64,000 bases of DNA from Phycisphaerae bacterium (GCA_049977145.1 JBMFGW010000004.1:4791-68790); one strand, 5' to 3'. Positions 26,427 through 56,699 are shown, counted from the first letter of the stretch. Notes: a model not told the origin generated them from the letters alone. Numbers and translations are program-made.

Positions 26427-26834
26427 CTATGTTCAAAATAGCCGCACGACGTTCTATTTTTATTGTCGCCATCCGCTGCGGCAAACCATCGCCCCGCCCA
26501 AGGTCGGGCTACCGACGGCACCGGACTGAACATGCTTATGGCTGCTTCCTTCCGGACCTGACCAGGTTCACAGTCAACCCGTGCATCGGGCCCGACCATG
26601 GCCGGGGCGCACAGACGATAATTTATGTATGATAGCAGCTTGCGGTGTAACTGGCCACCGCTTATCGCTTGCGTTGGGGAAAGCGTCATGGTCTTTTAGT
26701 TTTCCCCTTAGTCGGTCTTTTTCGTCTTCATGATATTCTGGGGCAGAACGATTTATTGGGAAATTTGATCAAGCCGCCCCTCGAAACTCCACGCAGCCGT
26801 GAAAACTAAAAGCCCCTGGTGGCGTTGCCAACCT

Positions 26835-40136: not shown

Positions 40137-41489
40137 ATGCTGGAGGATCAGACCGCTTTATCCGAAAAATCTCCGGCCGCACCAGCGCCGCCGGTACTGG
40201 TGCGCTGGTTATATAATCTACGCATTGGATGGGAAATTCTCCGTGCGCGGCGGGTGGAGGATCGCACCGGGCAACAGGCGGCGGCGATGACGTACAACAC
40301 TCTTTTCAGTCTGTTACCGGTAATGGTATTGCTGCTGGTCTTGATGTCTCTGGTGCTGACCAAGCAACAGATTCATCATGAGGAAATGGCGCTCGTACAT
40401 CGGCTGGGTTTAAGCCAGCTTTCCACCCGGGGTGTTACCGGCGCCACGACCAAGCCACAATTTATTGTCCAGACCATCATCCATCAGATTGATAAAATGC
40501 GCACGGTGCTGCGCTCTCCAGGCACAGGTATCGTTGGTTTTATCACCTTGCTCTGGGCGGCCATCAGCCTGATGCACGTCATCGAAACCGCGTTTAATCG
40601 TATCTACCGCGTAACGGAAAATCGCCCATGGACACGCAAGGTTACGCTGTATTGGTGCGTGCTTTCGCTGGGGCCGCTGGCGGTGGCCGCGTCGCTTTTT
40701 GCCTCCGCCAAACTCATCGCGATGGCCGACGCGCTGCATCTAAGTGCGGCGGTATTCACTCCGTTTGGCATTCTGGTGAGTTATGCCGGGGATTGGGCCT
40801 TAATTTTTGTGATTTATAAATTAATACCCAACACGATTGTCCGGTGGAAAGCCGCGGCCGTAGGCGCTTTGGCCGCCACGTTTTTGTGGGAGGCGGGAAA
40901 ATATGGTTTCGGCTTTTACGTTCATGATTTGGCGGGATATGGTAAATGGTATGGCAATCTGGGACTGATCCCACTATTTATGCTGTGGATATTTTTGACG
41001 TGGAACTTTCTGCTGCTCGGCCTGGAAATTGCTTTTATCCAACAGTTTTTTCCGATACTCAAACGCCGTTTTATCATGCACCGGGGCGGACGTTCCACGT
41101 TGACCGATAGCCGCTGGATTTTGCCGCTGGCCATTTTGATGGTGCATCGTTTTGAGGAAGGCAAGAAACTCACGGCGGAAATGGCGGCCAATGAATTGGG
41201 TTTGGCGCTGGAACCAGTGGTGGAAATGCTCTCTTCGCTGGCGAAAGCGGGGCTGATACTGCCGGTTGGCGGACAACCGCAGCAATATGTGCTGGCCAAG
41301 GCGCCGGAAAACATTGGCGTGGCGGAAATCCTGCATGCCGTTGCAGACGGCTGCCACACAATTACTGATTCCATGGCGACGACCGAGGAAGAGCATGTCC
41401 TGCGGCGTCCGCGTTTACGGGAGTTTTATGATCTTGAATCGCAATGGGGAAAACATCATACACTGGCGGAACTGGCGGCGCGTACCTAA
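40137..41489 (+). CDS. YihY/BrkB-family membrane protein fused to a C-terminal Rrf2-like winged-helix domain
   Basis: YihY polytopic core of about 300 aa, then a 150-aa tail (LTAEMAANELGLALEPVVEMLSSLAKAGLILPVGGQPQQYVLAKAPENIGVAEILHAV) that resembles an Rrf2/BadM wHTH. Confidence 0.7.
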   Translation: MLEDQTALSEKSPAAPAPPVLVRWLYNLRIGWEILRARRVEDRTGQQAAAMTYNTLFSLLPVMVLLLVLMSLVLTKQQIHHEEMALVHRLGLSQLSTRGVTGATTKPQFIVQTIIHQIDKMRTVLRSPGTGIVGFITLLWAAISLMHVIETAFNRIYRVTENRPWTRKVTLYWCVLSLGPLAVAASLFASAKLIAMADALHLSAAVFTPFGILVSYAGDWALIFVIYKLIPNTIVRWKAAAVGALAATFLWEAGKYGFGFYVHDLAGYGKWYGNLGLIPLFMLWIFLTWNFLLLGLEIAFIQQFFPILKRRFIMHRGGRSTLTDSRWILPLAILMVHRFEEGKKLTAEMAANELGLALEPVVEMLSSLAKAGLILPVGGQPQQYVLAKAPENIGVAEILHAVADGCHTITDSMATTEEEHVLRRPRLREFYDLESQWGKHHTLAELAART

Positions 41490-41589
41490 ATTGATTGGCG
41501 CCGGATGGGTTGATATAAAGATAGATTCCCAAACCTGTTTAATGCCACTTGGGGCCGGCGCCTACAGCTCCTTTAACCAATTCCGGATT

Positions 41590-42060
41590 CTAAAACAATC
41601 CCGCCGCAACGCCGCCGCACCCATAAAGCCGCGACCGCGGGTCGCGCCCCGTTTACCCCGTACACACCGCGTACCTTCGCATCGTGAAACATTGCCGGTA
41701 GTCCGTTACGGATTCGATCGGACAAATGCGTTAAACAAGAGCCGTTTTCGGATTAGCGCGGCCACCCGTTCGCGCGTTTTGGTCGTGGCGTCGCCGCACC
41801 CGTCAAATGTGAACAGCCCGGAGACATCGGCGTTGTGGAACCTTCCAATGTGCGCAATGGACCGCCGGTGGCCGTTGACGCCGAGCGTGGCAATTTTTCC
41901 GGGCCACGCAGCGGTGCGGGAGCTAATTACGTCCCCGTTTCACTTCGCACCCGCCCGCCGCCATCACCTTTTAGCCGCGGGCATTGTGCCGCGCGTCCCC
42001 GTTTATTCCATCCCTCCGCAGCCCTTGCGACGAGCGCATAATTTTCCCAGAAATCAACGG
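41590..42060. repeat. Degenerate copy 1 of a ~550-bp intercassette repeat
   Basis: It shares CATAAAGCCGCGACCgcgGGTCGCGCCCCGTTTA and CCTTTTAGCCGCG blocks with copies 2 and 3, and lies just 3' of vapBC. Confidence 0.5.
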
Positions 42061-42101
42061 AGAACCACGGCGATGACAATTGTGAAAGTTGGGATCCACG
42101 C

Positions 42102-42515
42102 TTATCTTCCAGCGGGACTAATGATGTCCAACCGTGGAAAATAGGTTCGGTAACGTCCCATGTCGCGCGTCATCAGTTTGAGTCCTTCAACCGCCGCATG
42201 CGCACCAATAAAAAAATCAGGTAATACCACTATCTTCTCACCGCCACGTCGTCGATATGACAAAAAGCATTTTGCCGCCAGAAAGGCCGCCTCATAAGGT
42301 ATGCCACGGCGTTCGAACCACTCCGGCGGAAGTGCTTCGTTGACATCCTCAATACGGGAAAATCGCACCGATACCTCGACGAAAATTACCGCATTGATGA
42401 CCAGCGTATGGCGTTCCGCCGCCTCGGCCAATGCCTCGCTGGACCATTGAAACCATTGGGAATCCTCGGTGAGAATATCGAGCAACACATTAGAATCCAC
42501 CATGATGCCGGGCAT
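42102..42515 (-). CDS. vapC: PIN-domain ribonuclease toxin VapC
   Basis: PIN acidic residues (MVDSNVLLDIL..., EVS). Confidence 0.85.
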   Translation of the reverse strand: MPGIMVDSNVLLDILTEDSQWFQWSSEALAEAAERHTLVINAVIFVEVSVRFSRIEDVNEALPPEWFERRGIPYEAAFLAAKCFLSYRRRGGEKIVVLPDFFIGAHAAVEGLKLMTRDMGRYRTYFPRLDIISPAGR

Positions 42516-42518
42516 GTG

Positions 42519-42740
42519 TCACATCCGTGTAAGTTTCATAATCTCATCGGTCGATAAGCCGGTGCCGGCGCGGCCACGCATCCGTGCAATCAAAGCGTTT
42601 CCTCGTCGGCCCTTGGAGATCTTGCGTAAAACAATCTCCCGGCCGCGAATGATAAATTCCACGTCCGTGTGTGGAAGAATTCCAGCGCGTTCGCGAATCG
42701 CCCGAGGAACTGTTACTTGGCCTTTCACTGTCACCTTCAT
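42519..42740 (-). CDS. vapB: AbrB/MazE/SpoVT-type antitoxin VapB
   Basis: MKVTVKGQVTVPRAIRERAGI swapped-hairpin motif. 73 aa, separated from vapC by 3 nt. Confidence 0.75.
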   Translation of the reverse strand: MKVTVKGQVTVPRAIRERAGILPHTDVEFIIRGREIVLRKISKGRRGNALIARMRGRAGTGLSTDEIMKLTRM

Positions 42741-43218
42741 GGTTGAAACTCCTATGCACCGGCCGCGCCACGCTTTCGATCATTAACAGCGGACGGCGTA
42801 TGGTAATACTCTTACAGGTATTATTACTACTCTGCAATGCAAACGCAAATAGAAAGCGGTGTGGGTGGCGGTCTATAATTTTATGGCTCTTCGGGCAAAC
42901 CAGTGGGTAAATTATGCTCGAAAAAATGATGTGAGCGGCAATTGGCCGTGTTTTTCTGTCGCTTCACAGAGTTTCAAAACTGTTGATTCTCATGGGATGG
43001 AAAAACGTAGCTACAAACGACGGTTATCGGATGCCTATCGATTCGCTGGTTTTCGCATGGCCCCCAAAGTCACCGGCATGTTTGGTGATCCCAAGGCGCG
43101 GTTGCTGCGTCTATCGCGGCGCTCAAAACACGCTTTGCGGCTGCTGTGGAAAGGCCCACAGCGGCTGGTATGACCATAAAACTCGACGGGTGCGTGATCT
43201 TTCGTGCGGAGACATGTG

Positions 43219-43770
43219 GAAGCCGAAATCTCCCGACACATCGGGACAGGCCCTTTGCCGCAGGAGCCGGCTAATCGGGGCTTCACCTCATTCCCGATCA
43301 ACCGCACCCCGGCGACAGCCGCCGCACCGGGGCCGCCCCAATGACCATTGAGCATTGAGCGCAGCGCCGCTGCGCCTCATAAAGCCGCGACCGTTGGTCG
43401 CGCCCCGTTTAGCGTCGTCGGCTGCCGACGGGCGCTCCCCATTCCCAAATCCCCCAGCCCCGCCGCGGCGGAACATCTGGGGGCGCTGGTGTCCCCACCC
43501 GCCGTAGTCCCAGTTCCAATGAGGCCGCAACGCCCATCCGCCAAACTCATCACCGGCAAACCTTATTCTGCCAACCTCGCTGGGCATGTATCTTAATATC
43601 TACGCGCACGGGCCAAACCGTTACCGCCGCACCGAACCGCAATATATCCTTTTAGCCGCGTGGCCTTGGCCCGCGCGTTCGCAGCGGAAATCCCACGCCC
43701 ATGCCAAAAAATATAGCCGCACCAAGGGCAATGCGTTATGCCTTGCATATATTCAATAAACGATGGATGT
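43219..43770. repeat. Copy 2 of ~550-bp structured intercassette repeat (ends in AAACGATGGATGTC)
   Basis: About 90% identical to 46600-47151. Internal hairpins are TCCCGAcacaTCGGGA, GCGACCgttGGTCGC, CGTCGGCtGCCGACG and CCCCCAG...CTGGGGG. Confidence 0.8.
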
Positions 43771-43852
43771 CCCCTTTTTCGCATCTTTCGCCTGTTGCAA
43801 TTATTACGGGAATTCGAGGAAGCCTCGAACAAAATCGGCATTTGCCAAGGAA

Positions 43853-44281
43853 TCACTCCGTTGAAGGCTTATCTTGGAGGTATTGCCACCCTCGCGCCTT
43901 TGCGTGCTGCTTCAACTTTTCCGCTTTCTTTGAAGCTTGGCTTTTGCCATCTTGCCCAAAATCGATAAGGGCGTGCGCCGGGTGTGTGGTTGGGTCTGGG
44001 TTTGGCGTTAGGCTGAGAGCGGTGCACTCTTTTACACTGACCGACATAACCCCGATAGAGAGGTAGCCTAACTCTCTGCTGTAATGCCTCCACGACTCCT
44101 CGGCGGTGATTTTATCGCCATCGTAAACCGAGAGCTTGTTTCTATCTTTCGGCGTTGGGCGGAAAACTTGCGATGTGATTTCCCCGTCTTGGCACCAGCT
44201 GGGATGCACCTGCCGGTGTAACAATGTTTCGTCAGTCATTCCGCCGCTCCACCCAGGGTCATTATTTGCGCCACCAACCAC
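43853..44281 (-). CDS. Hypothetical protein (142 aa) with basic Lys-rich C-tail; downstream gene of the unknown two-gene operon
   Basis: The ORF has an internal ATG (M15) forming an ATGA start/stop overlap with the upstream gene. No recognisable domain. Confidence 0.6.
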   Translation of the reverse strand: MVGGANNDPGWSGGMTDETLLHRQVHPSWCQDGEITSQVFRPTPKDRNKLSVYDGDKITAEESWRHYSRELGYLSIGVMSVSVKECTALSLTPNPDPTTHPAHALIDFGQDGKSQASKKAEKLKQHAKARGWQYLQDKPSTE

Positions 44282-45390
44282 TTCCAGGATTCAGGAAGAT
44301 TAAGGTTCAAGGCCTTGTTACTTTCTTCCACGTCCGTTGTAAGATCGACCTGAAACCAATCGGCATTGTGGGTTTTAATGTCGATTTCCAAGGATGCCGC
44401 GATTTGGCCTAGCTTCCATTCCGCCTGAATGCCACCCTCTACCGTGGGATATAAACGTGGTAAAATCGCCTCCTCAGAATAATATTTATTAAACGCACCT
44501 CTTAACCAAATGAGCCCATCGGAAGCGGGCGCTTTGCCTTCGCCTTCGAGCCATCCATCTTTCAGGTTGGCTATCTCTTCCAATCTCATTTCCACGTCAA
44601 GTGGATCGAGTTCATTAATATGTTCGATTGACTCAAAGCTCTCCAACCTCTTGCTGCGGTTAAACTTTCCAACGCCCTGCAGGAGCACGCGATACCCCTG
44701 CCTATATTTTGCGAACGCTTTCAAGACGGGATCGAGGTGCTGGGGGGCCAATGGGGCGAAGATTTTGTGACCATCCGCCTCCTGTAGTTGGAAGGTCATC
44801 TTGGCTTGGTCAGCCTCGCAGATCGCAGCACGAAGCGTTACATCTTCGGTATAGTCCTTTACAGTGTCGGAGGCTAAAAGTAAGGCTCGTCTGACGGTTA
44901 ATGTTAAACGAGTAACTGCTCCACCATCAGGGGACGTGAACTCGATGGCTTCATCTCCTCGGAGGCTGCGACCGATCCTGTCGAACCAGCCCAGTTTTTC
45001 TTTTGGGACATGGTTAAAGATTTCCTTGGGATTTGCTGCTGCTTTTATTGCGGCGAGAACTGAATCTCTTCCCTTCTCAAGCCAAGTTACAATGTCTGAC
45101 GGGAACAACATGTCGGTGGAAACCGAAAGCGCAATTACAGGGATTGCGCTTCCCGCCTCAACTGCGGTAAGCTTCAGCGAAATACCCTCGGTGAAATGAC
45201 GCGGTGATCGCTCGCGGTTTGGGTTGGCTTTCAAAAATTCATGTTTGGCCATTTCCAAGATCATGGCTTCTAGCGCGGCTAAGTCACCTAGGACTTCCAA
45301 TGGGATAGAATGTTCTTCAAACCTTGGCCCAACGAAACGGGGACGTAAAAATTCAGTTTCGTCCATCAACCTTACCTCGTAAGCCTGCAC
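44236..45390 (-). CDS. Hypothetical protein (384 aa); upstream gene of the unknown two-gene operon
   Basis: Long ORF of coding-like composition with no recognisable motif. It is translationally coupled to the 142-aa gene. Confidence 0.65.
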   Translation of the reverse strand: MQAYEVRLMDETEFLRPRFVGPRFEEHSIPLEVLGDLAALEAMILEMAKHEFLKANPNRERSPRHFTEGISLKLTAVEAGSAIPVIALSVSTDMLFPSDIVTWLEKGRDSVLAAIKAAANPKEIFNHVPKEKLGWFDRIGRSLRGDEAIEFTSPDGGAVTRLTLTVRRALLLASDTVKDYTEDVTLRAAICEADQAKMTFQLQEADGHKIFAPLAPQHLDPVLKAFAKYRQGYRVLLQGVGKFNRSKRLESFESIEHINELDPLDVEMRLEEIANLKDGWLEGEGKAPASDGLIWLRGAFNKYYSEEAILPRLYPTVEGGIQAEWKLGQIAASLEIDIKTHNADWFQVDLTTDVEESNKALNLNLPESWKWLVAQIMTLGGAAE

Positions 45391-45758
45391 AAATCATCAC
45401 AATCGTGGATACCGCACCTCGAAATTTAGGTTGTTCCCACTGGATACATATGCGATCCCCAGTTCGCTGTGATCGAAGCACAATAATGCTGATATTTTAC
45501 CCGCAGAACACTAAATGGCAACGTCCAGGCACTTCGCGCAGCCATGATTAGTCCCTCTTGCCGGATACCATCAACTTTCGCATCGCCGCATGGAATAGGT
45601 AAAATTCAGCGGGCGCACCACATGCACCGCCGTGGCGGAACTCGGTATCGCGACAACGCCCCCCAAACAACTGCACCAGAATGACAGAATTTTGATAACC
45701 GTCAAGACCTGCGCGGAATCCGGTGCGTCAGTGAAACAATCTGTGTCTTATTAACTGA

Positions 45759-45995
45759 ATGGAGTTCACCATGGAAATATCCGTTAAGGGGGAGTGGCGA
45801 CTCAAATCGCACACGGATGGCGAAGAGTATTCCGGGAAGACTGGAGCGGGCGTCAGCCTCAGCAAGGTTACCATTGATTCTGAATATACGTTCGTCTGCG
45901 AAGAAACAACCGAATTCGCGCTCGCCAGCGGGAAAGAGACCCAAAAGCTTACGCTCATGAGCCTAAGGGAAAATCGCCGATCGGTCATGGAATGA
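45759..45995 (+). CDS. Small acidic hypothetical protein (about 74-78 aa), divergent from the two-gene operon
   Basis: GGAG 7 nt upstream of an internal ATG (MEISVKGE...). Very low confidence. Confidence 0.25.
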   Translation: MEFTMEISVKGEWRLKSHTDGEEYSGKTGAGVSLSKVTIDSEYTFVCEETTEFALASGKETQKLTLMSLRENRRSVME

Positions 45996-46099
45996 GAAAA
46001 TGGATTGCCAGTTGGATGTTTGCTGTTAATCCGGTCGGTCAATTGTGGAAACGGTGGATGTCACATTTTCTATATCCCAAGAAATGCGTGTACTTAGAT

Positions 46100-46113
46100 A
46101 AACGATGGATGTC
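46100..46113. other. Cassette-junction motif AAACGATGGATGTC (site 2)
   Basis: Same core as 43757-43770, 47138-47151 and 49111-49123, all in the same orientation. Confidence 0.5.
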
Positions 46114-46233
46114 ACCAATGCAACTCCCTTAACAATACAGCGCGACTTTGGCCGGGATCGCGATTGGCCGAAAAGACCCCACTGCCCCTCGCTTTTGCGA
46201 TGCTGCAGTATATTCGTAATCAGATTTGTGGCG

Positions 46234-46485
46234 TTATTGTCGAGAGAAAAGCAATTCGTCCGCCGGAACCTCGAATGTAGCGGGACTTTCATCCGCGTTA
46301 CCAACAGGCCGCACGCGCACAAGCCGTCGGCCCAAAGAGCCTATGGCACCTCTATCTTCAACAACGACGACCGAAAGATCGCTGCGACCAAAGCGGATTT
46401 TAGCCCGGCGACCAACGGACGGCACCAAGCGGATTGACCGCCTCGGTTTATGAATTGGTAATTTCGCCATAAAGCATCCCTTCAT
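46234..46485 (-). CDS. Possible small ORF (83 aa) in the cassette remnant between junction site 2 and repeat copy 3
   Basis: ORF only. Competing overlapping ORFs sit in other frames. Confidence 0.15.
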   Translation of the reverse strand: MKGCFMAKLPIHKPRRSIRLVPSVGRRAKIRFGRSDLSVVVVEDRGAIGSLGRRLVRVRPVGNADESPATFEVPADELLFSRQ

Positions 46486-46599
46486 ATCAGAGCGTTAGAC
46501 ATTATAGCATTCGCTACCACCATCGACGGCAGATTGTCGCGCATGGCAAGCCAAGGACAACTCGCTTGCCCCAGCCATAGCCGCTCCCTGTTTAGGCAG

Positions 46600-47151
46600 G
46601 AAGCCGAAATCCCCCGACACATCGGGACAGGCCCTTTGCCGCAGGAGCCGGCTGGCCGGGGCTTCACCTCATTCCCGATCAACTGCTCGGCGGCGACAGC
46701 CGCCGCACCGGACCGTCCCATTGATCATTGTTCATTGAGCGCCGCGCCACCGTCCCTCATAAAGCCGCGACCGATGGTCGCGCCCCGTTTAGCGTCGTCG
46801 GCTGCCGACGGGCTCTCCCCTTCCCAAAATCCCCCAGCCCCGCCGCTGCGGACGATCTGGGGGCGCGGGTGTCCCCACCCGCCGTAGTCCCAGCTCCAAT
46901 GAGGCCGCAACCCCGATCCGCCGAACTGGCCACCGGCGAACCCTATTCTGCCAATATCGCTTGGCATGTATCTTAATATCTACGCGCACGGACTAAACTA
47001 TTACCGCCACACCGAACCACAATATATCCTTTTAGCCGCGTGGCCTTGGCCCGCGCGTTCGCAGCGGAAATCCTACGCCCATGCCAAAAAATATAGTCGC
47101 ACCAAGGGCAACGCGTTATGCCTTGCTCGCAGCTAATGGACGATGGATGTT
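46600..47151. repeat. Copy 3 of ~550-bp structured intercassette repeat (ends in GGACGATGGATGTT)
   Basis: About 90% identical to copy 2. Stem sequences are conserved while loops vary (GCGACC-gat-GGTCGC). It ends 20 nt from the AIPR stop. Confidence 0.8.
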
Positions 47152-47171: not shown

Positions 47172-48956
47172 TTAGTCTGCCGCCCACCGATCATCGAATT
47201 CGTCCGCGTCCATCCTTAGCGAGTCCCGCAGCTTCTGGCTCAGCTCACGGCCGCCGGGCATTGATGGAAGCATGTTAAAATATTGTCCGACTGCCTGCCG
47301 GATTCCTGCCAAACACGCCTTTGTTTTGATCCAGTTTTGTGGGCTGAATACGCGGTTGGCCAGCTGGGGCTCATTTGCGGCCGCCTCAAGTGCGCTGTTT
47401 AGGCACGTTCCGGCTGCGTCTACCACCTGACCAATAAGATTGGCCGCCTTTGCCCTCTCATACGCAACCACAGGGTTAGGAACGCCGTCGCCTCTAGAGT
47501 TTGCCTGGCAGAAGTACAGTGAGACAGCGTACAAGTGGTTATACGGGGCATAGGATCGCATTGCCAACAGCGACTCATTCAACCCAAGGGGATTGTCTTT
47601 CTTCCACCGCTTTTCAATCTCCTGCATCCAATGCGACAGAGCATAAGCGTTCTCGGGTGCATACTCCCGATTACGTTTGAAAAGTTGCTCGAAGTGCTTG
47701 TCGAAGAGCTTGTTTTCGCTATACGAGATGTTTGGTCGCTGTGAATGCCAAGCCATCATCCACTTCGCCAACTCCATCAGATCGACAACCTCCGTCCCAT
47801 CGCGATCTGCAGGTGGCTTCTCGCCCCTTTTGGTAATGAAGTATCCCATTGGATATTTCTGCTCGTACGACTTCTTCGTGGCGAGAACACGCCGGTCGTT
47901 GCTGCGCAAATCCCTTGGCTTGACACCGCTCTGGGAGTTGGTGGAGATGCTGATCCTGTCGCCGCGGTTCCGCTCCGGAATCTCATAAAAGCGGAACATC
48001 GCATAAGCACTGTCGAGTTCCTTGACTCGCTCGCTGCATGAAAGGATGGTGTTCAGCGACTGACAACCGTTGACGATGCTGAGGCCCTTTATCGTCAGCA
48101 TGCCGTCGTTAATATCGAACTTACTGCAGATTGCGGTGACACCGTTGTGGAGGAAGAAGAAGTCATCTGCCCGATCACTATAAATTGTGTCCTTGATGCC
48201 CTTATTCACACGATTGTTCAAGCCCAACGACTGGCGGACATTCTTTTGAAAGAGCGTCCCATCCTTGATGCCCGGAATGGCGATACAGTCTTTCAACGGG
48301 ATCGCGGCGACGATACATTTCGTTCCGCCGATTTCCATTGCCATATACTTGTCAGATTCCAGCGTGACCTTATGGCTGATGAGCGGGTTCTCGCGATCCA
48401 GCGAAATATCGTAACGACGCTTCAGTTCCTCCGGGTCAACAACATGTATCTCCGCCGGAAAATCCTCTGCTTCAGCGATATTTTCCTGAAACTGCGCAAG
48501 ATCCTCCTTGGCGCCAGTGGTCAAGAACCCGGTGGCGATGAGCTCGAAGGAAACGTTATATTCATCTTCAATCGCAGTGGCAACTTCGGCGAGCCGGCGC
48601 TTAAGCCTTTGATTCCCAGTAGCCTGCAATTTGACAATATCTTTGAGCTTAATCCATGATGACAGCACCTCTCGCAAAGGTGCCGCGTCTATAGTCGGTT
48701 GGCCCACAAATTTGCCCTGGATAACGTAAACCGTTGCGTTGCCATCGTCCACAACGATTGCATCAATCTGCTGGTCGTCGGGGCCATCTGTGACATCCTC
48801 TCGGGTTTCAATCATGTCGCGGCCATGAATGTTATGCACATACCAAGCGACGAAACGCTGCCCGTCATTGACGTATTTTTGTTGAAAATACTCACCTTGA
48901 ATTTCTTTTTTAATCTGGTCGTAAATCGATGGCACGGGATCGGGGGACAAAGTCAT
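47172..48956 (-). CDS. AIPR-family abortive infection phage resistance protein
   Basis: 594 aa with the AIPR-like core (FFFLHNGVTAICSKFDINDG) and a long C-terminal helical region. The segment is visibly AT-richer than its neighbours. Confidence 0.75.
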   Translation of the reverse strand: MTLSPDPVPSIYDQIKKEIQGEYFQQKYVNDGQRFVAWYVHNIHGRDMIETREDVTDGPDDQQIDAIVVDDGNATVYVIQGKFVGQPTIDAAPLREVLSSWIKLKDIVKLQATGNQRLKRRLAEVATAIEDEYNVSFELIATGFLTTGAKEDLAQFQENIAEAEDFPAEIHVVDPEELKRRYDISLDRENPLISHKVTLESDKYMAMEIGGTKCIVAAIPLKDCIAIPGIKDGTLFQKNVRQSLGLNNRVNKGIKDTIYSDRADDFFFLHNGVTAICSKFDINDGMLTIKGLSIVNGCQSLNTILSCSERVKELDSAYAMFRFYEIPERNRGDRISISTNSQSGVKPRDLRSNDRRVLATKKSYEQKYPMGYFITKRGEKPPADRDGTEVVDLMELAKWMMAWHSQRPNISYSENKLFDKHFEQLFKRNREYAPENAYALSHWMQEIEKRWKKDNPLGLNESLLAMRSYAPYNHLYAVSLYFCQANSRGDGVPNPVVAYERAKAANLIGQVVDAAGTCLNSALEAAANEPQLANRVFSPQNWIKTKACLAGIRQAVGQYFNMLPSMPGGRELSQKLRDSLRMDADEFDDRWAAD

Positions 48957-49110
48957 CTGTAGGCCTTTCGTTGAGAACGACGACAGGGCAATATTCTACA
49001 ACATCCCGCCAGCGCCCGATAGGGGATCGATTCCCGGCGAAGAAAGCGGGGCGAAGATCTTACGGCGCGATGCCGCAGCGGGGGCACGAACTGAGTGCGG
49101 TTTGCGTCTA

Positions 49111-49123
49111 TTCAATGGATGTC
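49111..49123. other. Cassette-junction motif TTCAATGGATGTC (site 4)
   Basis: It shares TATTCAAT...GGATGTC with site 1 and lies about 45 nt 3' of the protease stop. Confidence 0.45.
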
Positions 49124-49166
49124 ATTATTTCGTGCCGCTACGGGCTGCATGGCGCCGCCCCATGGG

Positions 49167-49967
49167 CTACCATGGCATCGCATGATGGTCCAGCGCGCCG
49201 TCGGCACGCAAGAACGCTGCGTGAGCGACGAAGATAGTCGCATGGATTCCTTCGCCACTCTCGTACATGAAGCCCACCAGTTGCGGGATATTCCGGGCCT
49301 CGTCCACGACGTACACGGCGCTGCCACTCATACCGCCCAGCGAGGTCAGCTCATCGAGATCAGGATTGCACTTAACGGCAACCCGCACCATATCCCCATC
49401 CGCGAGAACGATATGCCGGGCCGAAACAGAGGTCACGAAATCGCAGACCGGAGTCGCCCGCGCGTCCAGTCCACCGGCGCTGGACGCGCGGTGCGCTCCC
49501 GGGAATCCTAACAAGACCGCAACCTGACCCTCCATGGCGCGGATCGGGGGCCAAACCTCGGCCCTGAAATAGGATTTCCCACTACCCGTGATGCGTTCCG
49601 GATCCGGCAGCCTAAGCACCGCTAAATCCAGTCGCGTTCCACCGTTTTCAACAAGATGGGCGTCCGATACGATCACTGGCGGGACGCCGTTCCCGGCCCC
49701 GACGGCCAGAACGGCGTGCGGATTGGCTTCCCTTAATTCATTGAAGCGGTCGATCACATGGCCGCATGTGACCAGAAGTTTCGCGGTGCCGGTGTCGATG
49801 AAGGAGGCGGTGCCATTGCAGATCACGTCGCTCGGCGGTGCTCCGCTGCTCGGCAAGAGCAGCAGCATGCCGACGTGCGGCAACAGCCGAGGGGTGATTT
49901 TTTCCAGTCGATCCTTAAGTTCCTTTTCATCCATCTGAAATGCTCCAGCACCACCGAACCTCGACAA
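49167..49967 (-). CDS. Cytoplasmic trypsin-like (S1/chymotrypsin-fold) serine protease
   Basis: His-Asp-Ser in canonical order (LLVTCGHVI, LDLAVLRL, LGGMSGSAVY). No signal peptide. The start is probably the second ATG (MDEKELK, 49934) with GGAG upstream. It lies about 55-90 nt 3' of hsdS on the same strand. Confidence 0.7.
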   Translation of the reverse strand: MSRFGGAGAFQMDEKELKDRLEKITPRLLPHVGMLLLLPSSGAPPSDVICNGTASFIDTGTAKLLVTCGHVIDRFNELREANPHAVLAVGAGNGVPPVIVSDAHLVENGGTRLDLAVLRLPDPERITGSGKSYFRAEVWPPIRAMEGQVAVLLGFPGAHRASSAGGLDARATPVCDFVTSVSARHIVLADGDMVRVAVKCNPDLDELTSLGGMSGSAVYVVDEARNIPQLVGFMYESGEGIHATIFVAHAAFLRADGALDHHAMPW

Positions 49968-50021
49968 AACCAGTCGTATCTTTCAACCCCTCCGCCCGCC
50001 CTAAATTTGAGATCCCGTTCA

Positions 50022-51224
50022 TCACAACTCCCCATTAAACGCCCGGTGCAACATGGACTGAAACAGGGCATCAAGCCGGGCGCGGCTGGTGGTTTGAGCG
50101 GATTCGATCTGGCGGATTTCGGTCACCCGTTGGGCAAATTTCTTTTGTAATGGCAGTGGCGGGAAGGGAATCGCCAACTCGCTCAAGAATTTTAGGTTTA
50201 TATTTTTTTGGGCCATTTGTGGTGCAGCTTCCTCGAGATGATTTTCCATGGTAACGAGACAAGCACGAACGTAATCGGCAGCAACGCCATCGCTCGGGAT
50301 AAACCCGACCATACTGTCTGGAAAGCAGGCCGGAAATGTCAGGATGGCTGTTTTGCCAATGTTCGCGGCAATGGTGACAACGAGCGTTCCAGCAGGCCAC
50401 ATTCGGCTTTGGGCGAAACCCTTTTCCGAATAGGTCTGGGTATAGGTGGTGATCTCGCCGTTGGCACTGGCAACATCGCCCGTCTGGATAAATGGATATT
50501 TGCCCCCATAGAGGCTGGGATCTCCTCGCGGGCGATTTCTGGAGCGTCCGCGATCAAGCTTACCTATTTCAGGGAGCATTTTGACTTTCCAACCTTCGGG
50601 ATTTGTGACAGGATCACCAAACATCTCCTGAAAAAGCGCGGGGATGAGGTCGGCGGTGCGGCGGTCGGCTTGGGCGCGGAGTTTTCGCAACCCGTCGGCC
50701 TCGTCCAGCAGCTTCACGATCCGCTCCTGCTCCGCCAGCGGCGGGAGGGTAATGGTGGTCGCTCTCAGGTGAGATGGGCCGAAGTTTTGTTGAGCGGATC
50801 CGGTTACGAGCCGGGTGATCTGCCCACGAAATTCGACCGAATCGAGCCAGTGCCGCAGCCAGCCCAGGCTTGAGACCCCCTCTTTCGGTTTGAACCGGAT
50901 CGTGCTGGTGTTGAGGCAGAGAGGTAGGTGTTGCGTCTCGACAAACGCGCCGCGAGTCCGCAATAAACCATCCTTGTCAAACGAGATTCCCGAACTGGCT
51001 ATTACCATGTCGCCCGCATCTATGAGAAAGTGAGAATACTTTTCCTGAACTTCCTCATGGGCAAGGTAGCGTTCCGTGCTCGACAAGTCGAGATTCCCCT
51101 CACTCGTAATATTTGCAACGTTGAGGAGCTTGACGCCTGATCCGCGGAACTGCCATTTACGAACACCCGGTCCCTCTTGAAACCAATAGGCATCCCCTAG
51201 CGGTTTTGTTGGCCAGCGCTTCAT
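50022..51224 (-). CDS. hsdS: Type I restriction-modification specificity subunit HsdS
   Basis: Two target-recognition domains separated by a conserved central repeat (PPLAEQERIVKLLDEA) and a terminal repeat (PLPLQKKFAQRVTEI). ATGA overlap with hsdM. Confidence 0.9.
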   Translation of the reverse strand: MKRWPTKPLGDAYWFQEGPGVRKWQFRGSGVKLLNVANITSEGNLDLSSTERYLAHEEVQEKYSHFLIDAGDMVIASSGISFDKDGLLRTRGAFVETQHLPLCLNTSTIRFKPKEGVSSLGWLRHWLDSVEFRGQITRLVTGSAQQNFGPSHLRATTITLPPLAEQERIVKLLDEADGLRKLRAQADRRTADLIPALFQEMFGDPVTNPEGWKVKMLPEIGKLDRGRSRNRPRGDPSLYGGKYPFIQTGDVASANGEITTYTQTYSEKGFAQSRMWPAGTLVVTIAANIGKTAILTFPACFPDSMVGFIPSDGVAADYVRACLVTMENHLEEAAPQMAQKNINLKFLSELAIPFPPLPLQKKFAQRVTEIRQIESAQTTSRARLDALFQSMLHRAFNGEL

Positions 51225-52738
51225 TCGCTCCCCCCACCTTTCGCCAACAACGCTTCGCCGCGTCGAACAATTTCACCCTCCAACTTAATCACCTCGCGGA
51301 GAATGTCCGAAGGCGCATCATGATTCACGGCTTCGCTGGTCACAGCCCTGTATCGGCCTGCGGCCAGGCTCCAATCGTTTTCCTTGATTTTCTCAATCGC
51401 CACGCGATAGCTTTTGGCACTTTCTTCGCGTGTTGGCCATTTGGCCAAAATATCGGGAATATCGTTGGCTTCAATGGGGCTGCGTTTGTCGTCCAGACTT
51501 AGGCCATCGGCCCCCAAATCGTAAAACCAGACGGATTTTGTCGGCGTACCCTTCTGAAATATCAACGCTGCCGTAGCCACGCCCGCATAAGGCTTGAAAA
51601 CCCCGCTGGGCAAATTGATGATGGCTTGCAGATCGCACTCGGTTAATAGCGCTTCGCGTAGTTTTACCGCAGCGTTTGTTGAGCCAAATAACACGCCATT
51701 GGGCACAATAACACCTGCCCGCCCGCCCGGTGCCAGATGATCCACAAACCATTTTAGAAATAGCAGTTCGGTGGCCCGGGTGTTTAACTTATAATTCAGA
51801 TCCGCGAGAATGCTTTCATCCTGCACCTTGCCGGAGAATGGCGGATTGGCCAAAATAACTTCAAAGCGTTCCCCCGGATACACCCCGCCAAATCCCGTTG
51901 TCAACGGGTTGAAATGCTCAACGCGCGCCCGTTCCAACTGGTGCAGATATAAATTAAGAATCGCGATTTTGACCATATTGGCGTCGTTATCAAAGCCGGT
52001 AAAGGCCTGTGATCCCAGAAACTTCCATTGGGCCGATTTGAGCAGCGATCCATAAATGTGCCCCCGCTTCAGGTCGGCCGGTTTGGTGTTTTGCCGCAGA
52101 ATGTGATTAAGCGCGGAGATAAGAAAGCCCGCCGTGCCGCACGCGGGGTCACAAATCCGCTGGCCCGGTTGCGGGTTCACCAATTCAACCATCAGGTCAA
52201 TAATGTGGCGCGGGGTGCGGAATTGGCCATTAGTGCCGGACATGGAAAGCTTGGATAGCAGATATTCGTACATATCGCCTTTAAGATCGTGGCCATCATG
52301 CGCGGCAAGGTCCATTTCCTCAATGCCCTGAATGATGGCGCGCAGCGTGGGGCGGTCATAAATTTTCAGTGTGGCGCGGCCAAACAGGAGCTTGCCGGTG
52401 TCGCTTAGGTTCGGCAGCTCATGCAAACTTTCAATGGCGTCACGGGCGGCATTGAACAGTTCATCCCCAGCCAGAGTCACAAAGTTACCCCAGGCAAAGC
52501 GTGCCCATTTACCGGAGAAAATGCGGGTATATTTTTTATCAAGCCCCGCAAGGGCCTCATCCTTTTCAGTCAGCAGGCGTAAAAACAGCAGATAAGAAAT
52601 CTGCTCAATGGAATCCATCGGGTTATTTACCCCGCCGGAATACAGGATGTCCATAAGCTGGTCCACCCGCTGGCGCAAGCCGGAGGAAAAGAAATTGGAA
52701 CCATTGGTTTTTATTGGTGGATCCGTCGCCATATTCAT
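51221..52738 (-). CDS. hsdM: Type I restriction-modification DNA methyltransferase HsdM
   Basis: HsdM N-terminal domain, an AdoMet-binding region and the N6-adenine MTase motif IV (NPPF: ILANPPFSGK). Confidence 0.9.
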   Translation of the reverse strand: MNMATDPPIKTNGSNFFSSGLRQRVDQLMDILYSGGVNNPMDSIEQISYLLFLRLLTEKDEALAGLDKKYTRIFSGKWARFAWGNFVTLAGDELFNAARDAIESLHELPNLSDTGKLLFGRATLKIYDRPTLRAIIQGIEEMDLAAHDGHDLKGDMYEYLLSKLSMSGTNGQFRTPRHIIDLMVELVNPQPGQRICDPACGTAGFLISALNHILRQNTKPADLKRGHIYGSLLKSAQWKFLGSQAFTGFDNDANMVKIAILNLYLHQLERARVEHFNPLTTGFGGVYPGERFEVILANPPFSGKVQDESILADLNYKLNTRATELLFLKWFVDHLAPGGRAGVIVPNGVLFGSTNAAVKLREALLTECDLQAIINLPSGVFKPYAGVATAALIFQKGTPTKSVWFYDLGADGLSLDDKRSPIEANDIPDILAKWPTREESAKSYRVAIEKIKENDWSLAAGRYRAVTSEAVNHDAPSDILREVIKLEGEIVRRGEALLAKGGGSE

Positions 52739-52747
52739 TGCACCTTT

Positions 52748-55171
52748 TTATGCACTGGCCAGCAGGGATTGCCGGACCAGGCCGGACTGGCGCAGGGCTT
52801 CAAATACTTCGCCACGCGCCTCAAACCGAGATAATGCCGTGACGCCGCCCAGCGGATTAAACTGTATCTCGCTGAACATCGTCATATCCCCCGCCATGAA
52901 TTTTTTAAGCGAGTTACCATCCTCGGCAATCAGTTCGGCGGTGGCGTTAAGCCACTTCTGCTCATTGTAACGCAGATTAAACCGCGCGGCGATGGAGTCC
53001 ACCGTATCGCAAATAATCGCGTCACGCGTCGGCAACGGCTTACGCCCGACGGCATTGTAAACAAAGGCCGGAGTGCTTGCCGGCACACCATAAGAGATGA
53101 TGAGCTTGTCCGGGGAGTAATACATTTCCGGGCGGTGATAAAACCGTTCGTTAACCAGCGTTTCAACCGTGTCATCATCTTCCGCATCAACAGCGGTCTG
53201 CATTTCCGGAGTCCGGGCGACAAACTCTCTGATGTCTCGCTCATAACCGCCACGAAACGTCATCAGGTCCACCTTCTGCCCGTCGGGCCCGACAACGGTT
53301 ATTTCCCGGCTCACCAGCTTGTCCACACCCTCCCAGGTCGGAATGTCCCGCGGTGGCGGCGCGCTCAAATCAGGCGGCGTACCATCCGCGGTGGCAACTT
53401 CGCCATCACCATCACCTTCACGCAGAATCACCCCTTGCGGCAAATGGGGCGGGTAGGTGGTGGGTTCCGATTGCTGTTTGGGGCGTGGCAGCTTGAGCGG
53501 AACAGTATAGTCGTATTTTTCCTCAAAATATTCGGCTACTGCGCAGAAATCCAGTATCAGGAAATATTTCTTTTCGTGTTCCGTGTTGCCGATCTTAAAG
53601 GTAAACAGTCGCGTGCCGCGTCCCTTAATCTGGATGTATTCGGTTGGGGAAAAAATGGGCCGCATCAGGCCAATATTCAGCAAGTCCTGGCAGTTGTAGC
53701 CGGTGGAAAGCATATCGACGGAAACGGCGATGCGTTCACTACGTTTCCCGTCGCGAAATTCCTTGGCTATTTCCGCGGCACCTTCAATCCGGCTGGTGAT
53801 GGTGACGGCAATACCAGGCTCAAGTAAGTTGAAAATTTTCGTCAGCTCGGTCGCATGAGTTTGGTTCACCGCAAACACCAGAGATTTCCCGATGTTGTTC
53901 GCCGGGTCCCGCTTCGCTTCAGCCAAAAACTCCTCGCAGATAACGCGGTTGCGGGCGGGAGTGAAGATTTTCCGTTCAAGGTCCTTAATCTTGAAATTCT
54001 CTTCCTGCTCGTTAATGACCACCGCCCAGCCGGAGTCGGCCAGCGCCTGCGTGGTGATGTCCGAGCGCAGGTCAATAATTTTGGGCAGGCAAAGGAACGG
54101 ACCCTCCGGGTCTTTCACCGCGTCAACAATGTCATAACGGAAAGTCGGAAAGCCGGGCTTGCAGCCAAAATAATTGTAGGTGTCCCGGAACAAGCGCGCT
54201 TCAAGCGCCTTGGGATTTTCCTGCTCAAGCTGTTCCATATCCACATTTTTCAAATAGGCCTTGGGCGTGGCGGTCAGACCGACGCGGGTAGCCTGGAAAA
54301 ATTGCACCACCTCCCGCGCGTCGCCGTAAATTGAGCGGTGAGCTTCATCATTAACCACCAGATCAAAGTGAAATGGCGTGAATTCCTCCCGGTAGCGGCG
54401 GTCCACCATCAGCGATTGCAGCGTGGCGACCACCACCGATGAGCCAAGCAATTCGCCGGATTTCCGGCGCGCGGTTTTATAGAGAACCGGCTTGTACTCG
54501 GCAAGCATGACATTGAATTCTTCCAGCGTCTGCTTGGCCAGTTCAATGCGGTCCACAATAAACAAAACCCGCTCGGCGTTGCGCGTGGCAAGAAAGCGCC
54601 GGATCAACGCGGCGCACAGCAGCGTCTTGCCCGTGCCGGTCGCCATTTCCAGCAGGAATCCGCGGCGGGCCTGATCATCAAACTGCCGCGATACGGTGTC
54701 CAATGCCGCAATCTGGTAGCGCCGCAGTTCGCGGTCGGGACGAAATCTTTTCAGATAATCGGGCGTGATGATCTCGCTCATCAACGCGCGCGGCGGTTGC
54801 AGATTTTTCAGGCGCAACCGTTCGAGGTCTTCAAGAGATGGCAGCCGCTCAATACGGTAGGCATCCCGATCCTTGCGGGTGTAATTCCAGAACCAGTGCT
54901 CCCGGCCATTGGAGAGAATCACGAACGGGGCTTTGCGGTTTTCGGCGTAGCCACGGGCCTGCTCCTTGGCGTTGTATGGATCAACATCTTCGCGTTTGGC
55001 TTCCAAAACACAAAGCGGGCCGCGCTGGCCGAAAAGGACATAATCCGCCCGCCCGGTAGCATCGCTTAGCTCAAAGCGGACCTGATGGGCATCCAGCAAG
55101 TTCCAACCGCTGTATTCCAGCGCCTTGTCAATGAGAACCCGCGAAAATGCCTCATTTTCCTGATTTTGCAT
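52748..55171 (-). CDS. hsdR: Type I restriction enzyme R subunit HsdR
   Basis: N-terminal nuclease domain (ADYVLFGQ...VLEAKRE), SF2 helicase motifs (GTGKT, DEAH as VVNDEAHRS) and a C-terminal domain. 807 aa. Confidence 0.9.
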   Translation of the reverse strand: MQNQENEAFSRVLIDKALEYSGWNLLDAHQVRFELSDATGRADYVLFGQRGPLCVLEAKREDVDPYNAKEQARGYAENRKAPFVILSNGREHWFWNYTRKDRDAYRIERLPSLEDLERLRLKNLQPPRALMSEIITPDYLKRFRPDRELRRYQIAALDTVSRQFDDQARRGFLLEMATGTGKTLLCAALIRRFLATRNAERVLFIVDRIELAKQTLEEFNVMLAEYKPVLYKTARRKSGELLGSSVVVATLQSLMVDRRYREEFTPFHFDLVVNDEAHRSIYGDAREVVQFFQATRVGLTATPKAYLKNVDMEQLEQENPKALEARLFRDTYNYFGCKPGFPTFRYDIVDAVKDPEGPFLCLPKIIDLRSDITTQALADSGWAVVINEQEENFKIKDLERKIFTPARNRVICEEFLAEAKRDPANNIGKSLVFAVNQTHATELTKIFNLLEPGIAVTITSRIEGAAEIAKEFRDGKRSERIAVSVDMLSTGYNCQDLLNIGLMRPIFSPTEYIQIKGRGTRLFTFKIGNTEHEKKYFLILDFCAVAEYFEEKYDYTVPLKLPRPKQQSEPTTYPPHLPQGVILREGDGDGEVATADGTPPDLSAPPPRDIPTWEGVDKLVSREITVVGPDGQKVDLMTFRGGYERDIREFVARTPEMQTAVDAEDDDTVETLVNERFYHRPEMYYSPDKLIISYGVPASTPAFVYNAVGRKPLPTRDAIICDTVDSIAARFNLRYNEQKWLNATAELIAEDGNSLKKFMAGDMTMFSEIQFNPLGGVTALSRFEARGEVFEALRQSGLVRQSLLASA

Positions 55172-55968: not shown

Positions 55969-56298
55969 GTGTTTGCGATTCGTCACTATATCTCGGCGTC
56001 CGGTAAGAACGTATTCGAGGCGTGGCTGACGTCGCTCAAGGATAAGTCTATCGAGGCCCGTATTGCGGCGCGTTTGGACCGCGTTGCGGTTGGTAATTTC
56101 GGCGCTTGCAGGCCGGTGGGAAACGGTGTCAGTGAACTGCGAATTGATTTTGGACCGGGGTAACGTATTTATTATGCAATGGTGGGAAAAACATGCGTAC
56201 TGCTTTTGTGCGGTGGAGATAAGCGCCGACAGGCGGCCGATATCGCCACTGCGGCAGAATACCTTCAAGATTACCGAAAAAGGAGCGTTGAACCATGA
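55969..56298 (+). pseudogene. Addiction-module killer protein (RelE/ParE superfamily, HigB-like) interrupted by in-frame TAA
   Basis: GTG start. ...ELRIDFGPG is followed by TAA (56161-56163), then the same frame continues as RIYYAMVGKTCVLLLCGGDKRRQAADIATAAEYLQDYRKRSVEP to the TGA at 56296-56298. The canonical family has Tyr at the stop position. Confidence 0.7.
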
Positions 56299-56342
56299 AC
56301 TTCAAGACATGTCCAGCACATAGCGTATCACATGATGAGGTG

Positions 56343-56699
56343 ATGAAACGGAAACTCAAGTCCGATCCCATGTTCGCCGTGGAATATCTTCGAGCCGCAC
56401 TGGAGGATGCAGATGAACCGAAAGTATTGCTGCTTGCATTGCGGCGGATCACCGAAGCGCGGGGTGGGTTTGCAAAAGTCGCAAAGATTGCCGGAATTGA
56501 ACGTGAAAGCCTGCATCGCGCTTTGTCCGCCCGCGGCAACCCCCGCCTTTCCACGCTGCAGGCGGTTACCAAAGCCATCGGTCTGAAACTGACGGTCGAG
56601 CAGCGCTCCAGCGGCACGGGACGCAAATTTCCGCATTCCAATTCGCGGGGTTCCGCATCTCGCAAACCAGTCTCACGAACCTTCGCTCTTTTGGTGTAA
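56343..56699 (+). CDS. Addiction-module antidote protein (HTH, HigA-like)
   Basis: MKRKLKSDPMFAVEYLRAALEDADEPKVLLLALRRITEARGGFAKVAKIAGIERESLHRALSARGNPRLSTLQAVTKAIGLKLTV. GAGG lies just upstream of this ATG. The ORF table extends the start to 56295. Confidence 0.75.
   Translation: MKRKLKSDPMFAVEYLRAALEDADEPKVLLLALRRITEARGGFAKVAKIAGIERESLHRALSARGNPRLSTLQAVTKAIGLKLTVEQRSSGTGRKFPHSNSRGSASRKPVSRTFALLV

Follow-up and report, generated by a model that had tools for sequence, protein, structure and literature searches.

Short GC-rich imperfect palindromes with an invariant stem and a variable loop are characteristic of repetitive extragenic palindromes (REPs) and REP doublets forming hairpins (REPINs), which are mobilized by REP-associated tyrosine transposases (RAYTs; IS200-like Y1, HUH) (Bertels & Rainey 2011, PMC3116915; Di Nocera et al. 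2013, PMC3733652). REP superfamilies have been described with a GTAG or CGTC tetranucleotide beside the stem (PMC3733652), and a Y1 transposase gene ringed by copies of the palindrome is the layout described for RAYTs (PMC3116915, PMC3337134). Other repeats that bear comparison with the element treated here are miniature inverted-repeat transposable elements (MITEs) derived from insertion sequences (ISs), bacterial interspersed mosaic elements (BIMEs), and the attC sites of integron cassettes. RAYTs bind and cleave REP hairpins, and an 8-bp target duplication is a hallmark of the ISL3 family of ISs. Here we analyzed two 553-bp direct repeats, U2 and U3, in a 64,000-nt window (the whole stretch of DNA analyzed, to which all coordinates refer) from a metagenome-assembled genome (MAG) of a Phycisphaerae bacterium. 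They lie in the spacers of a defence island, and we put at about 70% the probability that the unit they represent is a non-coding mosaic of decayed small mobile elements, present in two copies.

The two copies were delimited by a repeat search and BLASTN to 43218-43770 (U2) and 46599-47150 (U3), in direct orientation with a start-to-start spacing of 3381 bp. Their identity is 89.3% across 553 nt, and a single 1-nt indel separates them; the 64 differences in 558 compared columns are this indel and 63 substitutions (37 transitions and 26 transversions), and the copies share identical runs of 26-54 nt. The G+C content of the units is 62%; the window as a whole has 54% and the flanking cassettes about 51%. 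Both copies lie 3' of minus-strand genes, the edge of U2 being 83 nt past the stop codon of the candidate defence gene PDC-M32B and that of U3 22 nt past the stop codon of an AIPR gene. An initial annotation of this DNA had described the copies as direct repeats of about 90% identity, each 3' of a minus-strand gene, and both statements hold, with limits within 1 nt of ours. Its wider picture, a family of 550-bp repeats separating defence cassettes, stands as to position, since the spacers do lie between vapBC, PDC-M32 and AIPR, and fails as to a family of three members (see below). A 13-mer, AACGRTGGATGTC, marks the gene-proximal edge of U2 (43759-43771, plus strand). It recurs exactly at 46050-46062 and 46101-46113, in the spacer upstream of PDC-M32, and as a variant at the gene-proximal edge of U3 (47139-47151), all on one strand. 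At about 46075-46116 the right end of the unit seems to recur a third time, in part.

Two parts of the unit can be traced to described kinds of mobile element. The first contains hairpin 1, AAGCCGCGACC-GTT-GGTCGCGCC, at 43382-43404 on the plus strand of U2, with other copies at 46762-46784 and 41626-41648. The pattern AAGCCGCGACC-NNN-GGTCGCGCC has these 3 matches in the window, against 0.01 expected, and all are in spacers of the island. Its core, GCCGCGACC-NNN-GGTCGCG, forms a 7-bp stem with a 3-nt loop in all three copies (-8.3 kcal/mol as DNA), and the loops encountered are GTT, GAT, GCG and GGT. Together with about 35-60 nt of further sequence, hairpin 1 makes up an extended REP1 module on the minus strand (43345-43411; U3 counterpart, 46725-46791). 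When 185,579 species-representative genomes were scanned for the stem and its 3' flank, two planctomycete loci were recovered. One, in a Thermoguttaceae MAG (locus L001, 700-1480), carries six copies of GCCGCGACC-GGT-GGTCGCG within 800 bp, in both orientations and three on each side of an open reading frame (ORF; 859-1395, 178 aa) that matches Pfam Y1_Tnp (PF01797, IS200-like HUH transposase) with 31.5 bits against a cut-off of 23 bits. The other (L002) holds a cluster of three hairpins between genes. A further, distant Y1 gene in locus L118 is not flanked by hairpin-1 palindromes and was discarded.

From these features we conclude that hairpin 1 is a REP-type palindrome. Like REPs, hairpin-1 palindromes are extragenic, clustered and found in both orientations; the Thermoguttaceae locus has the 'REPtron' layout around a single Y1_Tnp gene; and across genomes, variants of the distal stem change in both arms together. 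Several features differ from those of described REPs and REPINs. The window has three copies in one island, with neither a RAYT gene nor a GTAG/CGTC tag. The tetranucleotide is absent beside the stem, whose flanks are CATAAA/GCC and CC/CCGTTTA, and GTAG follows only one of the six copies in the Thermoguttaceae locus. In addition, the hosts here are Planctomycetota (Phycisphaerae and Thermoguttaceae) rather than Proteobacteria, and the palindromes in the window are embedded in a larger duplicated mosaic.

The second traceable part is a MITE-derived segment at 43650-43724 on the minus strand, which may reach about 43576 and has its U3 counterpart at 47030-47104. It consists of one terminal inverted repeat, TGGTGCGGCTATATTTTTTGGCA, and a central palindrome, hairpin 2 (ACGCGCGGGCCAAGGCCACGCGGCTAAAA), and it matches the complete MITE over 74 nt with 85% identity (E about 3e-16). 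In sister Phycisphaerae this MITE is a non-coding element of 145-146 bp, complete on at least 8 separate contigs (L027, L031, L044, L062, L072, L075, L100 and L116; for example, L075 1075-1220) and present as partial copies on more. In these relatives both of its ends carry 23-bp terminal inverted repeats (GGGTGTGGCCATAATTTTTGGCA, 0-5 mismatches), and of 8 copies, 4 are flanked by perfect and 2 by almost perfect 8-bp target-site duplications. The relic in the window retains one recognizable end (4-5 mismatches) and the core; its other half has decayed and no target duplication flanks it. Hairpin 2 is thus the core of a MITE.

The hairpin-2 palindrome itself is distributed more widely. Its pattern, ACGCGCGG-N7-12-CGCGGCTAAAA, is present in all three spacers and matches 108 metagenomic stretches. 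Among the hairpin-2 segments only 43650-43723 (and 47030-47103) has extended homologues, which are on contigs from the samples that hold an 81%-identity relative of the BrkB-like protein encoded beside the island; one of them is on that gene's own contig. The further hits have the same core palindrome in different flanks or in clusters of alternating orientation, and the palindrome extends to at least 7 bp in 24 of 103 metagenomic hits compared with 2.5 after shuffling. Hairpin 2 is accordingly a widespread REP-like core, in which the two arms vary jointly from one genome to another at the level of DNA. The element resembles IS-derived MITEs, possibly of the ISL3 family, in being a 146-bp, non-coding, multi-copy element with 23-bp repeats and 8-bp duplications. 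It departs from them in having a REP-like palindrome at its centre, and the window departs further in keeping one terminal repeat and the core with no target duplication.

The left edge of U2 coincides with the truncation of another element. An ISL3-family remnant at 42886-43218 (plus strand) comprises a left inverted repeat, GGCTCTTCGGGCAAACCAGTGGGTAAATTA, and a frameshifted N-terminal fragment of about 75 aa of the transposase, and is cut at the left edge of U2. By tblastn, the fragment matches the annotated ISL3 transposase of CP114560 with 58% (E = 3e-5) and 60% (E = 2.6e-8) identity, and the GGCTCTTC-type inverted repeat of the remnant aligns with the repeats of the CP114560 ISL3 element. 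The match stops at 43213-43218, which is the left limit of U2/U3 homology, and no other part of an ISL3 transposase was found in the window. Matches of the remnant to hidden Markov models are weak and sub-threshold because only about 75 aa remain. A candidate ISL3 left end at 42864-42887, whose resemblance to the MITE terminal repeat was matched by 3 of 1000 shuffled sequences, was abandoned in favour of the canonical GGCTCTTC-type repeat at 42886, which comparison with a full ISL3 element brought out. The link between the MITE and ISL3 is thereby reduced to the 8-bp duplication shared with this family and the adjacency of the remnant to U2, and an ISL3 origin is a possibility. The ends of the MITE (GGGTGTGGCC...) differ from canonical ISL3 ends (GGCTCTTC...), and no autonomous ISL3 partner was found among 124 fetched loci.

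The spacer that the initial annotation took for a diverged, partial first copy (41590-42060) proved to be something else. It belongs to a separate 612-bp spacer between brkB and vapC (41490-42101) that contains two REP-type palindromes and one MITE-end-like motif. It matches the unit only in the blocks 41605-41655 and 41967-41996, which are differently spaced, and the remainder does not align; what it has in common with U2 and U3 is two short palindromes (about 30-50 nt) in otherwise unrelated sequence. Besides the hairpin-1 copy given above, it holds a hairpin-2-type palindrome, ACGCGCGGCACAATGCCCGCGGCTAAAA, at 41969-41996 (minus strand), with a distal stem unlike that of U2 and U3, and TGGCAATTTTTCCGGGC at 41888-41904 (plus strand). 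Locus L008 contains a related MITE-like element whose left terminal repeat has precisely this latter sequence.

The units are non-coding. Substitutions between U2 and U3 fall on the three codon positions as 27/21/15, with no significant periodicity. As the initial annotation had observed, the spurious ORFs common to both copies differ mostly non-synonymously: in one, 17 codons differ non-synonymously and 6 synonymously; in the other the numbers are 21 and 5, and U3 has acquired a stop codon. Pfam had no match for ten ORFs within and near the units. A chimeric query made from the six-frame stop-free segments of U2 found no relatives among the best 8000 candidates from 5.8 billion proteins, a list that low-complexity words may have swamped. 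A template/variable repeat pair of a diversity-generating retroelement was also considered and rejected: the substitutions are spread over all base types with no adenine bias, and no reverse transcriptase match was seen among the neighbours.

These results are best explained by a history in which nested insertion and decay of REP and MITE elements in dispensable spacers built the mosaic unit, and an IS-associated deletion set the left limit of homology. The two copies would have arisen by segmental duplication or homologous recombination, for example through single-crossover integration of DNA carrying one unit and the PDC-M32 cassette. Transposition of the unit is not invoked because its own edges have no terminal repeats or target duplications, because U2/U3 homology continues 22-46 nt past the MITE end into flanking DNA, and because its left limit is the IS truncation. 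Once in place, the direct repeats could mediate RecA-dependent loss or amplification of the 2.8-kb PDC-M32 segment, and transcription may end at the hairpin and T-run that come first behind each gene. The unit is close to BIMEs in being a composite intergenic palindrome mosaic 3' of genes with possible terminator or mRNA-stabilizing side effects. BIMEs differ from it in being high-copy and in their regular alternation of REP types; the unit is 553 bp long, exists in two copies, and consists mostly of sequence without detectable relatives.

Several observations weigh against a mosaic of decayed mobile elements. Only some 25-33% of the unit has been traced to mobile debris. The remaining two parts (43218-43344 and 43412-43649), about two-thirds of its length, had no relatives in about 0.8 Mb of fetched related sequence or in viral contigs, and exact-pattern scans of IMG/VR for a viral origin found nothing. 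The REP-type motifs number three in 64 kb, all within 41.6-46.8 kb of the island, unlike classical high-copy REPs; they are without the GTAG/CGTC tag of the described superfamilies (PMC3733652), and no relative of the Y1 transposase (RAYT) of the Thermoguttaceae locus was found anywhere in the 64-kb window. A block of 107 nt (43640-43746) differs between U2 and U3 at only 3 positions, compared with about 11% elsewhere, and could reflect constraint or gene conversion. Finally, the mechanism of duplication is inferred from the boundaries only.

Alternatively, the units could be anchors for homologous recombination through which defence cassettes are swapped, gained or lost between Phycisphaerae, an integron-like system with no integrase. 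PDC-M32 is enclosed by the units, which are directly repeated and share stretches of complete identity 26-54 nt in length, and the composition of the units is distinct from that of the cassettes. Variability of the island points the same way. In the closest relative locus (L014; 86% BrkB identity), collinearity with the window extends through arsR-serA-brkB and stops at 41493, 4 bases beyond the brkB stop codon. A PDC-M32A gene encoding a protein of 97% identity is present in two other loci, L123 and L124, within DNA that is 95% identical to the window over 44180-45537 only; sample ERZ27233557 contains a 95%-identical relative. Upstream of PDC-M32 in L123 are a PD-(D/E)XK-domain gene, 56 nt, and then a 62-100-nt module homologous to the hairpin-1 region (REP1 module versus L123 2557-2616: 62 nt, 85% identity). 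The arrangement indicates that the cassette is, by its sequence context, in other surroundings there, again behind a REP-bearing spacer. However, synteny with this relative breaks at 45537, which is 1,061 bp from the nearest unit edge, and not at a repeat edge; it is the single relative available for this comparison. Only two copies of the unit are known, and the full unit was found on no other contig among the fetched relatives. Nor does co-location with cassettes need a function, since dispensable spacers are where REP and MITE elements would in general be expected to build up. We therefore judge that the units are unlikely to be anchors. In a broader form of the idea, GC-rich spacers with REP and MITE palindromes would act in this Phycisphaerae lineage as shared 'landing pads', with PDC-M32, AbiU/AIPR and vapBC exchanged by homologous or hairpin-directed (RAYT-type) recombination and no integron integrase; we hold this to be a speculative proposal of still lower probability.

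A structured non-coding RNA is a more doubtful explanation. The unit would be transcribed on the minus strand together with the upstream defence gene, as a small RNA derived from the 3' untranslated region or as a terminator or stabilizer. Its location directly 3' of minus-strand genes fits, as does a terminator-like hairpin followed by a T-run after each gene (43718-43735 on the minus strand, downstream of PDC-M32B, with a twin behind the AIPR gene at 47098-47115; detected by a consensus scan only). The T-run of this hairpin is supplied by the MITE terminal repeat. The minus strand also folds slightly better than shuffled sequence, and the 107-nt block is nearly invariant. However, folding of the whole unit is not significantly better than that of shuffled sequence on either strand (z = -1.8 for the minus and -0.6 for the plus strand). 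At the gathering threshold, Rfam 15 yields only a signal recognition particle RNA at 26.5 kb in the window; at E values up to 5, nothing credible is found in 41.4-47.4 kb, where the only hit is a chance CRISPR-DR16 match of 18 bits. The MITE in L075 likewise has no Rfam match.

The substitutions argue in the same direction. In minimum-free-energy structures of either copy and either strand, the rate is 0.11-0.12 at paired and 0.10-0.11 at unpaired positions, a comparison of two sequences and hence of low power. Only 8-13 of 33-45 affected pairs are still paired, 12 of 45 in one case, with 0-1 compensatory changes, and RNAalifold finds a compensatory change in 1 of 153 pairs. A palindrome of U2 (43359-43375) is destroyed in U3 by five changes. 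Moreover, the conserved block is a MITE relic that is elsewhere flanked by target duplications, so that it spreads as DNA, and the same unit follows two unrelated defence systems. The initial annotation had inferred a selected RNA structure from hairpins that keep their stems while their loops vary. The hairpins it named exist. The covariation-like signature does not, as the 7-bp stem of hairpin 1 is invariant and the 3-nt loop alone varies, which leaves it with no covariation information. Two further stems, TCCCGAcacaTCGGGA and CCCCCAG...CTGGGGG, are kept between U2 and U3 (89% identical) only, and in one of them a stem substitution (43231 T>C) goes uncompensated. We conclude that the hairpins are palindromes at the level of DNA that descend from REP and MITE elements, and that they provide no evidence for a selected RNA fold.

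That the palindromes act at the DNA level is plausible, as had been suggested; the analogy drawn with integron attC sites does not carry over. Were the units attC-like or other site-specific sites, their hairpins would be recognized as DNA by a recombinase, a RAYT or an IS110-type enzyme. Several of the palindromes can fold as single-stranded DNA, REP-type hairpins flank a RAYT-like Y1 transposase gene in the Thermoguttaceae locus, and the succession of an ORF and a hairpin-forming non-coding element, repeated along one strand of accessory and defence genes, recalls integron cassettes. Against this, the unit (553 bp versus 57-141 bp) is 4-10 times as long as attC. Read from the sequence, its edges have no R''/L''/L'/R' organization and no GTTRRRY/RYYYAAC boxes. 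U2 and U3 are related by plain sequence homology and not by structure. No intI was found, and no Phage_integrase, tyrosine or serine recombinase or Y1 transposase is present among the ORFs annotated at 27.3-63.3 kb (ORFs of 1-27 kb were not scanned). The breakpoint in L123 also lies off the element. A site-specific role is very improbable. Least credible is that the whole 553-bp unit is a non-autonomous transposable element inserted twice in the island: it contains a transposon terminal repeat and adjoins an ISL3 remnant, but its edges are without terminal inverted repeats or target duplications, its homology passes the MITE terminal repeat into the flanks, and only two copies are known, with none found elsewhere.

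The genes around the units form a defence island that starts directly after a gene for a BrkB-like protein (40137-41489) and spans 41493 to about 56.8 kb. A protein with 100% identity to this BrkB is encoded on an NCBI contig of a Phycisphaerae MAG. The first cassette is a vapBC toxin-antitoxin pair (42102-42740, minus strand) with a PIN-domain toxin and a MazE/AbrB-type antitoxin. The candidate defence operon PDC-M32 (43853-45390, minus strand; A, ORF 44236-45390; B, ORF 43853-44281) is bracketed by U2 and U3. It was recognized by PADLOC (A, E = 1.8e-138; B, E = 9.3e-53) and has no match in Pfam or NCBIfam; its homologues, about 50-55% identical, are spread across phyla in metagenomes (380 proteins at E <= 1e-40). 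Two candidate small ORFs, 46234-46485 (minus strand, 83 aa) and 45759-45995 (plus strand, 78 aa), occupy the 1.2-kb spacer between U3 and PDC-M32 and have no match in Pfam, NCBIfam or PADLOC. An AIPR/AbiU-like abortive-infection gene (47172-48956, minus strand) is immediately upstream of U3 on that strand. With a trypsin-like peptidase gene and a complete type I restriction-modification system (hsdS, hsdM and hsdR) it makes up the remainder of the island (47172-55171, minus strand); the peptidase gene has a weak LmuA-like PADLOC match. Short ORFs at 55.3-55.9 kb resemble IS4-type transposase fragments by eye, with no Pfam match. They are followed by a possible higB/higA-type pair (55969-56163 and 56295-56699), of which the antidote gene only has a Pfam match (PF21716). 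Outside the island, a bacterial small signal recognition particle RNA is located at 26499-26597 (minus strand; Rfam RF00169, 79 bits).

The locus holds a caution for the reading of intergenic repeats: conserved stems with variable loops can stem from REP and MITE palindromes that spread as DNA, and no selection on RNA is needed. In addition, Planctomycetota are seen to have a REP-type palindrome with a link to a Y1 transposase, and Phycisphaerae a well-defined family of 146-bp MITEs with target duplications of 8 bp. In the island itself, the 553-bp direct repeats on either side of PDC-M32 could render this candidate defence system unstable or open to exchange. Should the spacers indeed be anchors for recombination, the finding would be relevant to the assembly of defence islands in a phylum that has received little study.

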